Below the pieces are notes generated by a model. That model made no database searches. It saw nothing but the letters and a program-made list of their open reading frames with translations, and had not been told where the DNA came from. A program made the translations under genes and the position numbers. From the NCBI GenBank assembly GCA_951406725.2, contig OX597837.1, positions 19,902,001 through 19,966,000 on the forward strand: 64,000 nt of DNA, read 5' to 3'. The DNA comes from Octopus vulgaris. Taxonomy: Eukaryota. Shown here piece after piece: positions 58,438 to 60,449 of this stretch (the stretch's first letter is position 1; each line of letters starts with the position of its first letter).

Positions 58438-60449
58438 ATGGGTTGGTAACTAAGTTCCCGCCGATTTTTTTAAATTTTGGAATTTACTGCCTTTTTAAAT
58501 TTTTGAATTTATTGCGTTTTTAAATTTTGGAATCTATATTTTTTCTGCTTAATTTCAGTTAATTTTTGTTATTTTCAGATCATTAAAATGGAATGTCAAG
58601 TTAAGAAAAATGAGCATTTTCGACACTTCCTTTTGCTGTTAATCAGGGTTCTAAGGCCGCAAAAGCTGCTGGCGATATTTGTTCTGTGTATGGAGATGTT
58701 GTTTTGGAGTTCTTAGTTGTGTGTTGTTATGCGGTGCCGTCTTCACAATTGCATTTCGAGTCGTAATACAGATAGAATACGGTGGACCTATAAATATATT
58801 TGGTGGCCATTTCCAGCTTTTTTCTATTCTTCTACTGTGTTCGGGAACCCTCTACTTCCTTCTTGCACTGTTTGGCATCGGATCGTTATTACTAAATAGC
58901 ACTAAGTGCTTAACTATTATGACATATTTTGTGTTAATACTAGCAATTGTGCAAATTTTTACTGGTATGGTCGATATCGGAGCGAAGGGTTACGTACACG
59001 GTGAAATTAACAAGCGCATGAAAGCTGCTCAAATGAATTATCTCAAGAATCCCACTTCGCAAATTGCATGGAACACGACACAACGCGCAATGAATTGTTG
59101 TGGTATTTATTCGTGGACTGAATGGTTCAGAATTTTGGGTGACCACAATCTCCCAGATTCGTGTTGCATTTATAAATCTCCAGGCTGCGTTCTCCAAGCT
59201 GTCGCCCAAACATAACAACGACGGCTGTCTGGGAAATTACGTTAGTTCTACCAACATTTACCAACTTGGAATTTCCATATACGGTCTCTTATCTAATTTT
59301 CTACATCTCTTCTTGATAGCAATACCTATATATTTAATTCAAAAGCTGGAAGAATACAATAAACTGTAAAGTGGTGTATTTGAAATACCTACAACTCCTT
59401 CCTATAACTGCTTTAATTTGTTACTCGCCTTTATTTTTAAAATACTGCTCCAACGAAAATGACAGGTTTATGTGAGGCCGATTCATTTCTGAAAGAACCG
59501 CTTATGATTCGTATGCCAAGTTCAAAAATGGAAATTTTGACTACAAAGACGCACCTTGTTTTGGCCGTCCAGTTGAGTTCGATGAAGAGCGATTAAATCA
59601 ACTTTTGTAGGAAAATTCTCGTCAAACGACAAGGGAACAGGCAGAGAAAATGGAATGCTCCCACACTGCTATAGAGAAGCATCTTCACTCGATGGGAAAG
59701 TTTCAGAAGTATGGGGCATGGGTTTCGCATGCTTTAAGTGACAACAACAAAACGAGCCACAATCTCCGCTGGTTTGCTTGCTCGTCACCACTCAACTCAT
59801 GGACACCAGCAACGATTTCTTTACTGAATCGTTACTAGCGACAAAACATGGTGCCTGTGCATCAATATGAAGCAGTGTAAGGAATGGCTTAGCCCCGGTA
59901 AACAAGCGACACCGCTCGAGAAACAAGATCTTCATCCGCGTTAAACGATGTTGTGCGTATGGTTGGTCTGGGAATGGATTATCCATTACGAATTGCTTGA
60001 ACGGAACCAAACGGTCAACGCGGAACTCTATGCTCAACAGATGGAACGACTCAACACGGCTATTCAAGAGAAAAAACCTAATCATCAGCATGGAGTTCTG
60101 CTGCACGACAACGCCCGCCCTCATATCGCCAATATGACCAAGGAAGCCATTCAAACGCATGACTAGGAAGTGCTCTCCTGATTTAGCACCAGTGGATTTC
60201 CACCTCTTTCAATCTCTTTCAAATGCTATGCGCGGAGTTTCGTTCAATACTGATGCAGAATTGAGATCAATTTTTCGAATCGAAATTGGGAGATTTCTAC
60301 CAACGAGGTATTGAAAATCTTGTTGAACGTTGGGAAGAAGTTGTAAACAACAAGGGTGAATATATTATTGATTAATTAGTTGTTATTTTTTATTAAACTT
60401 TTAAAAATTTTGAACTTGAAAAACGGCGGGAATTTAGTTGCCAACCTAA
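58438..60449 (+). mobile_element. Mariner (DD34D) with both TIRs, defective transposase and a ~0.79 kb tetraspanin cargo
   Basis: TA|ATGGGTTGGTAACTAAGTTCCCGCCGATTT ... AAACGGCGGGAATTTAGTTGCCAACCTAA|TA. Transposase ATG at 58588 (MECQVKKNEHFRH..NQGSKAAKAAGDICSVYGD); it resumes at ~59485 (ISERTAYDSYAKFKNGNFDYKDAPCFGRPVEFDEERL...WVSHAL...IVTSDKTW...LHDNARPH...SPDLAPVDFHLF...GEYIID*, ending 60375) with several stops and frameshifts. Confidence 0.95.
58697..59369 (+). pseudogene. Intron-less tetraspanin (CD63-like) coding sequence with no own ATG and one frameshift near 59210
   Basis: Three hydrophobic helices, then large-loop motifs W...Q....CCG (59096-59104), PDSCC and GC; after the frameshift DGC, a fourth helix LGISIYGLLSNFLHLFLIAIPIYLI and short tail QKLEEYNKL*. 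Six extracellular cysteines. Confidence 0.88.

Follow-up and report, generated by a model that had tools for sequence, protein, structure and literature searches.

The stretch of Octopus vulgaris DNA analyzed here (the window; 64,000 nucleotides of contig OX597837.1) carries at 58438-60449 a mariner element that is interrupted by a sequence copied from a tetraspanin gene. The element has TA on both sides and its terminal inverted repeats (TIRs) are complementary at 23 of 28 bases, with mismatches at the first base and four other positions of the left TIR, which bears out the TIRs and TA flanks named in the preliminary description. Pfam detected the tetraspanin profile PF00335 in 58685-59212 (E 1.9e-12) and a piece of Transposase_1 in 59945-60163, and no match in the third piece of the element that was tested. 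All coordinates are collected in Table 1.

Table 1. Positions of the features of the interrupted mariner element within the window.
Feature	Position	Strand	Remarks
Left TIR	58438..58465	+	TA microsatellite immediately 5' supplies the flanking TA
Three AT-rich 25-bp subterminal repeats, head-to-tail, in the mariner 5' region	58467..58541	+	
Transposase N-terminus, ATG at 58588	58588..58696	+	Frame interrupted near 58625, where 4 bases are missing; this loss is absent from 18/18 sisters
Left junction, 4-bp microhomology (mariner = donor)	58693..58696	+	
Cargo, tetraspanin copy	58693..59489	+	From G000:C2:118831933-118832734, 97% identity
Tetraspanin codons 18-189 in one frame (helices 1-3; CCG and PDSCC motifs)	58694..59215	+	Frameshift, stop at 59213-59215
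Tetraspanin remainder (helix 4), from codon 192 to codon 243, plus donor stop	59211..59368	+	Different frame
Donor 3' flank, ~120 nt, no poly(A) at its end	59369..59489	+	59489 is the 1-bp microhomology with mariner
Transposase remainder (DD34D type in sisters)	59489..60375	+	4 stops; deletions of 5, 17 and 11 bases
Right TIR, then TA	60422..60449	-	

A dead mariner with a broken tetraspanin copy

The mariner copy in the window is dead and non-coding. Relative to the family majority its stops lie at 59608, 59825, 59942 and 60164 and it has lost 4, 5, 17 and 11 bases, and an additional 3-base gap is common to 5 of 18 sister copies. Without the insert it measures ~1.22 kb, as against about 1.10-1.29 kb (1101-1292 bp) in 18 full-length sisters, so that the normal mariner size reported earlier was confirmed. 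The foreign part of the cargo extends from 58697 to 59488 (792 bp), or 797 bp with the junction bases. The transposase sequence ends at 58696 (~58697 as first described) and loses less than four codons, and it resumes at 59489 (~59485 as first described).

At the left junction mariner and donor share 4 bp, or 5 bp relative to the 3/28 copies with T next, and at the right junction 1 bp. A microhomology of at least 4 bp arose by chance in 1.8-1.9% of 200,000 simulated junctions, which corresponds to ~4% for either of two junctions. Comparison with 28 sister copies revealed that 11 mariner bases were lost at the break, with no target duplication, no filler and no poly(A); a poly(A) tail or duplication in this very comparison had been named beforehand as the mark of retroposition. 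The cargo runs 120 nt beyond the donor stop and then ends without an A-tract, and the earlier account of a same-strand tetraspanin insert lacking poly(A) and target duplication was therefore correct.

In correction of the preliminary description, the insert proved not to be an almost complete gene with all four helices in a single frame. The cargo covers 226 of 243 donor codons. Its first base is the third base of donor codon 17, and codons 1-17 with the donor's two upstream Met are accordingly missing. Its frame is interrupted by a stop at 58652, donor codon 44 no longer encodes Met and the first Met lies at 58919, which leaves no start before helix 3. Further downstream the loss of 5 bases after 59210 creates the stop at 59213 and shifts helix 4 into another frame. 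Start codon, four helices and loop cysteines of a functional tetraspanin are not found in one frame, and the cargo is a pseudogene without the capacity to encode the four-helix protein. An in-frame fusion of transposase and tetraspanin was rejected, as the tetraspanin frame is matched neither by the frame that starts with the ATG at 58588 nor by the one entering the junction. Eleven amino-acid differences separate cargo and donor. Polarization with proteins P0001 and P0002, using protein sequences only, places 6 on the cargo side and 3 in the donor and leaves 2 ambiguous. The dN/dS analysis suggested earlier yielded a ratio of 0.72 over 223 codons, in which 10 changes are non-synonymous and 4 synonymous, and these 14 changes are too few to tell selection on the cargo from neutral evolution.

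The right TIR is adjoined by a very high-copy repeat at 60460-60790, whose contig depth far exceeds that of mariner; we take this repeat to be SINE-like in appearance, and ARAGORN found no tRNA gene in it. A Pfam search for a host gene around the element, limited to the 150 longest non-repetitive open frames out of 285 and liable to miss short exons, gave transposon remains and two weak matches below the cut-off. One of the weak matches is to DUF4834 (13661-13939, plus strand, 27.0 bits against a cut-off of 27.8) in a 93-residue frame outside the element, which may be a host exon. Mobile-element remains were located at 55699-56067 (-), 31054-31287 (-), 42333-42680 (+) and 3680-3988 (-). The matches to DDE_3, HTH_32 and zf-RVT among the remains in the window are all below their cut-offs, and one frame presumably resembles the C-terminus of an RTE-type LINE.

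The mariner family and the donor gene

Well over a thousand candidate copies of the mariner family were detected in the genome. The insert is absent from all 28 mariner loci that were compared in the same genome, two of which (L009 and L019) have deletions of their own near the break. The left arm of the window copy aligns to positions 2-284 and the right arm to positions 297-1292 of one natural full-length sister. The family frame comprises 348 codons, pieces of one sister match HTH_48 and Transposase_1, the intact N-terminal counterpart in L012 matches HTH_48, and the catalytic spacing is 34 in the only 2 of 18 sisters that have both motifs in one frame. With TIRs of ~28 bp, a TA target, HTH_48 plus Transposase_1 and D-34-D spacing (domains and spacing taken from the sisters) this is a DD34D mariner. 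The family agrees with known DD34D mariners in its 1.29-kb unit, 28-bp TIRs, TA target and 348-codon frame, and also in the 34 residues separating the second and third catalytic Asp, whereas the window copy differs from them in being non-coding.

The family is star-like: 28 copies deviate by 3.6-7.7% from their majority, the closest pair differs by 6.6%, and the nearest sister of the window copy is 7.8% away. Judged from these distances it looks like one old burst with no later sub-burst among the copies sampled; this search and those for private deletions cover samples of copies and are no census. We found no subfamily that shares the private deletions of the window copy (no copy above 87% among the best 40 of 1595 scored), and over a second private-deletion stretch no other copy exceeded 93% (best 40 of 1452 scored). 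No whole transposase frame was present among the best-scored 150 of 21,131 candidates; the one candidate for a living transposase among these 150, a single 355-residue open frame, exits the frame before the second catalytic motif. Related transposases with 72-82% identity occur in various contigs and with 74-78% in records named as dragonfly and nematode. A horizontal transfer of the family is possible.

A genome search with insert and junctions gave 69 matches (best 40 of 1220 candidates scored) and, as the check proposed beforehand, one locus with these junctions. The insert alone, searched against 2.8 Gb, retrieved two candidates, both of which were scored: the donor and the window. The search for the parent gene was thus successful, and of the hoped-for copies with an intact frame only the donor itself, an intact gene, was found beside the broken window copy. 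The donor aligns to the insert in one piece (802 bp against 797 bp in the cargo) with 19 substitutions and the 5-base loss in 802 columns. It is an intact 243-residue tetraspanin with start, four helices and loop cysteines in one frame; its coding sequence is intronless and it is contiguous across the entire cargo, with no intron within the copied stretch. The donor is located on chromosome C2 and the element on C24. The nearest relatives of the donor protein are from Octopus bimaculoides (90%) and Argonauta hians (52%). Each donor flank matches itself alone (1/1 candidate each, in a search that skips very common words), and no copy of the mariner family was found in the 90 kb around the donor. 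LINE remains adjoin the donor and are also found within the window.

Upstream of the donor ATG there is an acceptor-like site, and the cargo starts ~80 nt after it. AATAAA-like words occur once inside the cargo, ~130 nt before its end, and otherwise 600-800 nt past it. At amino-acid positions 37, 78 and 106 the donor (L002:1451-2182) has changed and the cargo retains the residue of the related species; these three private changes would reflect fast change or allelic variation since copying.

The donor belongs to a group of intronless tetraspanin genes at C2:118794223-118844283 (L041-L046, ~50 kb), which comprises 4 single-exon genes for proteins of 231, 240, 243 and 245 amino acids including the donor. 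The other genes are only 26-34% identical to the donor and one lies on the opposite strand, which suggests an old intronless cluster. A Pfam tetraspanin search of the genome gave 28 matches (best 150 of 4402 candidates scored), of which 8 cover almost the entire profile in a single frame without stops; the donor is one of these 8, the window cargo is not. Four other single-frame matches are on C3, C10, C20 and C26. The cargo is indeed intronless, as first described, but this is no sign of an mRNA origin: an mRNA step is not needed, because the coding sequence of the donor is itself intronless.

The proposal that the mariner offers a cut-and-paste route to tetraspanin expansion fails, because there is one copy, its cargo is a non-coding pseudogene, and the mariner adjoins the locus of the window alone out of 28, with the other 27 tetraspanin matches lacking it within 1.5 kb. 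Beside the other tetraspanins the mariner was sought within this distance and rejected, the only case (1/28) being the window's own. The intronless tetraspanins, that is the four-gene C2 cluster and four other loci, have no copy of this mariner beside them. A distant mariner-like scrap (46% over 56 residues), which is probably intronic, lies ~440 bp from an exon-sized tetraspanin match at L093 (G000:C5:47352185-47355391).

Timing of the capture and competing explanations

The coding part of the mariner deviates from the column majority of 18 sisters at 48/995 sites (4.8%), at 33/875 sites without CpG, and at 49/996 sites if 28 sisters are used. Cargo and donor differ at 19/797 sites across two lineages (Fisher p = 0.008 against the mariner figure). 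At neutral sites the difference is 8/270, or 1.5% per lineage (95% interval 0.6-2.9%), which is ~0.3 of the mariner figure if equal rates are assumed and the majority of 18-28 copies, selected for likeness to the query, is accepted as reference. Because the mariner is 4.8% from its majority and cargo and donor have diverged by only ~1.5% per lineage, the capture likely took place long after the insertion of the mariner.

We assume that the composite arose by a one-off repair event in a mariner that was already dead, and assign this explanation a probability of about 90%. A double-strand break would have opened in the transposase gene ~110 bp from its start, whereupon the left end would have paired with the donor via 4 shared bases, and ~800 bp would have been copied by synthesis-dependent strand annealing or a microhomology-guided template switch. 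The right end would then have been rejoined via 1 shared base with the loss of 11 mariner bases, and no transposase would be required for any of this. The copy would from the outset have been out of frame with the transposase start and devoid of a start codon of its own, and would have decayed since. Directly observed are the donor, the single copy, the letters of the junctions, the two divergence figures and the fact that both the cargo and the transposase have lost their frame. This is in line with the original suggestion of templated gap repair from an intronless paralog in preference to LINE retroposition, for which the donor, the microhomology, the small deletion and the lack of duplication and poly(A) now speak.

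It seems probable to us, at a distinctly lower level of confidence, that the template of this repair was the chromosomal DNA of the donor. The choice of template is only weakly constrained, because the copied stretch contains no intron, and gap repair from DNA has against it the donor on another chromosome, a sense-oriented cargo of exon plus 3' flank that fits RNA too, and a right microhomology of 1 bp. The same repair with a patch of reverse-transcribed tetraspanin RNA, that is an endonuclease-independent, class 2 templated insertion, is a possible though clearly weaker candidate. The location of the donor on a different chromosome would suit it, as would the restriction of the cargo to coding exon and 3' flank from ~80 nt past the acceptor-like site and the LINE remains in the window and beside the donor, and class 2 insertions combine microdeletion and microhomology without duplication or poly(A), those produced experimentally being enriched in transcribed sequence (PMC5110952). 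However, the cargo has no exon-exon junction or poly(A), its coding content is the reason why the insert drew notice, and 13.4% of Pack-TIRs contain exon sequence even after filtering of retrocopies (PMC8277862). We regard DNA as likelier than RNA by roughly two to one, because nothing positively marks RNA and it was the coding content that drew notice to the insert. Cargo-specific letters stand, for example, at 58757, 58774, 58974 and 59115, and at 59283 the cargo shows G against A in the donor, a change of the kind that A-to-G editing would leave, although a single site is no proof. There is a slim chance that the patch is RNA-derived and the composite still polymorphic for presence and absence, with a cargo frame unbroken from helix 2 to the stop in some alleles. 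If this were true, an unbroken allele could yield a shortened tetraspanin or a regulatory RNA from the mariner promoter, and a duplicate would have been caught at birth.

The preliminary description had envisaged that the composite was amplified as a unit, and we consider it improbable that it was moved or multiplied by a transposase acting in trans, in the manner of a multicopy Pack-TIR formed by template switch and then transposed. Both TIRs and the TA flanks are retained and multicopy Pack-TIRs sit far from their donors, as is the case here (PMC8277862), but the single locus, found in one haplotype of one individual, was itself named in advance as the outcome that would speak for a one-off insertion. 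Moreover, no sister is closer than 7.8% (28 copies), none exceeds 87% over the stretch with two private deletions (best 40 of 1595), the cargo is a pseudogene captured later than most of the mariner's decay, 5/28 TIR positions differ, no whole transposase was seen (150 scored of 21,131) and no family copy lies in the 90 kb around the donor. A single excision and reinsertion that left no copy behind is possible.

Even less credible is ordinary LINE retroposition, in which a message truncated at its 5' end would have been inserted and its poly(A) and target duplication would subsequently have disappeared. The missing 5' end, the sense strand and the different chromosome would be expected from it, and most interchromosomal cases in a human survey were retroposed (PMC2671141). 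Against this stand the lack of filler at either join of donor and mariner, a target that lost 11 bp instead of being duplicated, the sole internal AATAAA ~130 nt before the cargo end with the others 600-800 nt beyond it, and a divergence of ~1.5% that is too young for a traceless decay.

Least probable of all is a chimera in which the assembly joined the donor to a mariner copy, since 19 sites and the 5-base gap distinguish the cargo from the donor. Of 24 listed public runs, none recorded as RNA and hence without bearing on expression, 20 contain part of the stretch, and four with four organism labels (X1, X2, X3 and X11) were examined as contigs, which show presence, not absence. No contig of these four runs spans the whole element, and X1, the best run, may derive from the sample of the assembly itself, which would be compatible with a chimera. 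Nevertheless, one X1 contig spans the right junction and extends 45 letters into the mariner. The left junction is spanned by an X1 contig of 84 letters with 0 differences, of which 26 letters fall within the cargo (below the bar of 31 letters), and contigs in X1 and X2 start exactly at 58693. Contigs of X2 break at 59189 and 59220 and thereby bracket the cluster of changes specific to the cargo. Across the right TIR and its flank an X1 contig has 0 differences.

Some contigs may bear on other alleles. At 11 sites the X1 contig across the right junction agrees with the donor; it also has the 5 bases, and it runs straight into mariner. More simply, it would be an assembler merge of donor and cargo. 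A 3' contig of X2 has the letters of the window, yet continues beyond the junction into other sequence, and such mixed contigs in X1 and X2 can be read as merged copies or other alleles. Between 59400 and 59460 X1 mixes donor and cargo letters at 59416, 59429 and 59431, matching neither genome copy, which points to a third haplotype in this interval. The donor contigs of X3 and X11 cross 58693 without a fork, and no trace of the cargo's own letters was found in the contigs of X3 and X11 nor, over most of the cargo, in those of X1 and X2. Contig 26 of X3 equals the window copy at 58603-58696 (1 difference, no gap), a segment with the private 4-base loss and 7 substitutions relative to the majority, 2 of which were found in none of 28 sisters; the best other genome copy over this stretch reaches 93% with gaps (best 40 of 1452 scored). 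The next 10 letters of this contig do not fit the cargo, and it has no flank and lies in a tangled repeat graph. The pattern is what the same mariner copy without cargo would give and may hint at such an allele.

Comparison with known captures of host sequence

Contrary to the earlier view that host gene capture is much less commonly reported for mariners, 115 of 370 Pack-TIRs described in 100 animal genomes belong to Tc/mariner (Tan et al., 2021, PMC8277862). Nearly all of the 370 are single-copy, 67.6% show microhomology, the median cargo is 224 bp and 13.4% are exonic, and gap filling favors nearby templates (59.8% intrachromosomal). By the definition used there both flanks stem from one TIR element and extend over at least 10 bp of its termini, which is the case here. 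Likewise, the internal part is between 100 and 5000 bp long and at least 90% identical to a unique parent at a length ratio of 80-120% (797 against 802 bp, 97%), there is no transposon within 100 bp of the parent and hence no segmental duplication, and the cargo does not derive from a multi-exon parent by loss of introns. The single copy, the microhomology and the small internal loss are features of the gap-filling single-copy class, whereas the non-obligatory bias toward nearby donors is not seen, with the donor on C2 and the element on C24 (PMC8277862). Two or more loci with the same junctions at different targets, as expected of a mobile composite, were not found in the one haplotype of one individual searched, nor were the poly(A) tail and target-site duplication of a LINE retrocopy. 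From these features we classify the composite as a single-copy Pack-TIR.

The window locus resembles the published single-copy Pack-TIRs in its non-transposon DNA between the ends of one TIR element, in its single copy and microhomology, in the small loss from the element (here 11 of ~1290 bp), in the capture after element death and in its Tc/mariner host, whereas its cargo is longer (797 bp against a median of 224 bp), covers 226/243 codons and comes from an interchromosomal donor, which is the minority class (PMC8277862). Repair-mediated duplications described in human (824 cases, intrachromosomal, up to 619 bp) likewise interrupt a transposon copy that merely marks the break, with microhomology of 2-9 nt, deletions of 1-15 nt and no poly(A) (Pace et al., 2009, PMC2671141). 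There the donors are on the same chromosome, in contrast to the window locus, 17/29 interchromosomal cases were retroposed, and whole exons are rare (2 full exons, plus 2 flanked by intron sequence). Class 2 templated sequence insertion polymorphisms share the patch from a distant locus, the microdeletion, the microhomology and the absence of duplication and poly(A), and they may be polymorphic (Onozawa and Aplan, 2016, PMC5110952). Those are human insertions for which an RNA origin was argued from experiments, whereas the window case is known from sequence alone.

Near-whole genes within TIR elements in print are ARF6 in MER20 and Ssk-FB4 (PMC8277862). Ssk-FB4 of Drosophila melanogaster is, like the window cargo, a nearly whole membrane-protein gene in a TIR element, but it keeps promoter, introns and frame, is present at three loci and is transcribed and translated (PMC8277862), while the window cargo lacks both a start and a promoter of its own, is frameshifted and occurs at a single locus. 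Plant Pack-MULEs can be grouped with Ssk-FB4 in this respect. What is less usual at the window locus is the combination of a near-whole coding sequence with a donor on another chromosome. Octopus and molluscs are not mentioned in the main text of Tan et al. (PMC8277862), and our literature search, which mostly did not extend to subscription papers, found no Pack-TIR paper with a mollusc or cephalopod among those listed and none on an octopus mariner with tetraspanin or on this locus.

Taken as it stands, the locus is genuine but represents an ordinary case of a known kind, and its significance is small. It would gain in significance if it turned out to be polymorphic and one allele to be both unbroken and transcribed, or if an RNA template were proved by editing marks. 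For molluscs it provides a clear case of gene copying by repair that can be dated and for which the donor, the empty family and the composite are all in hand.
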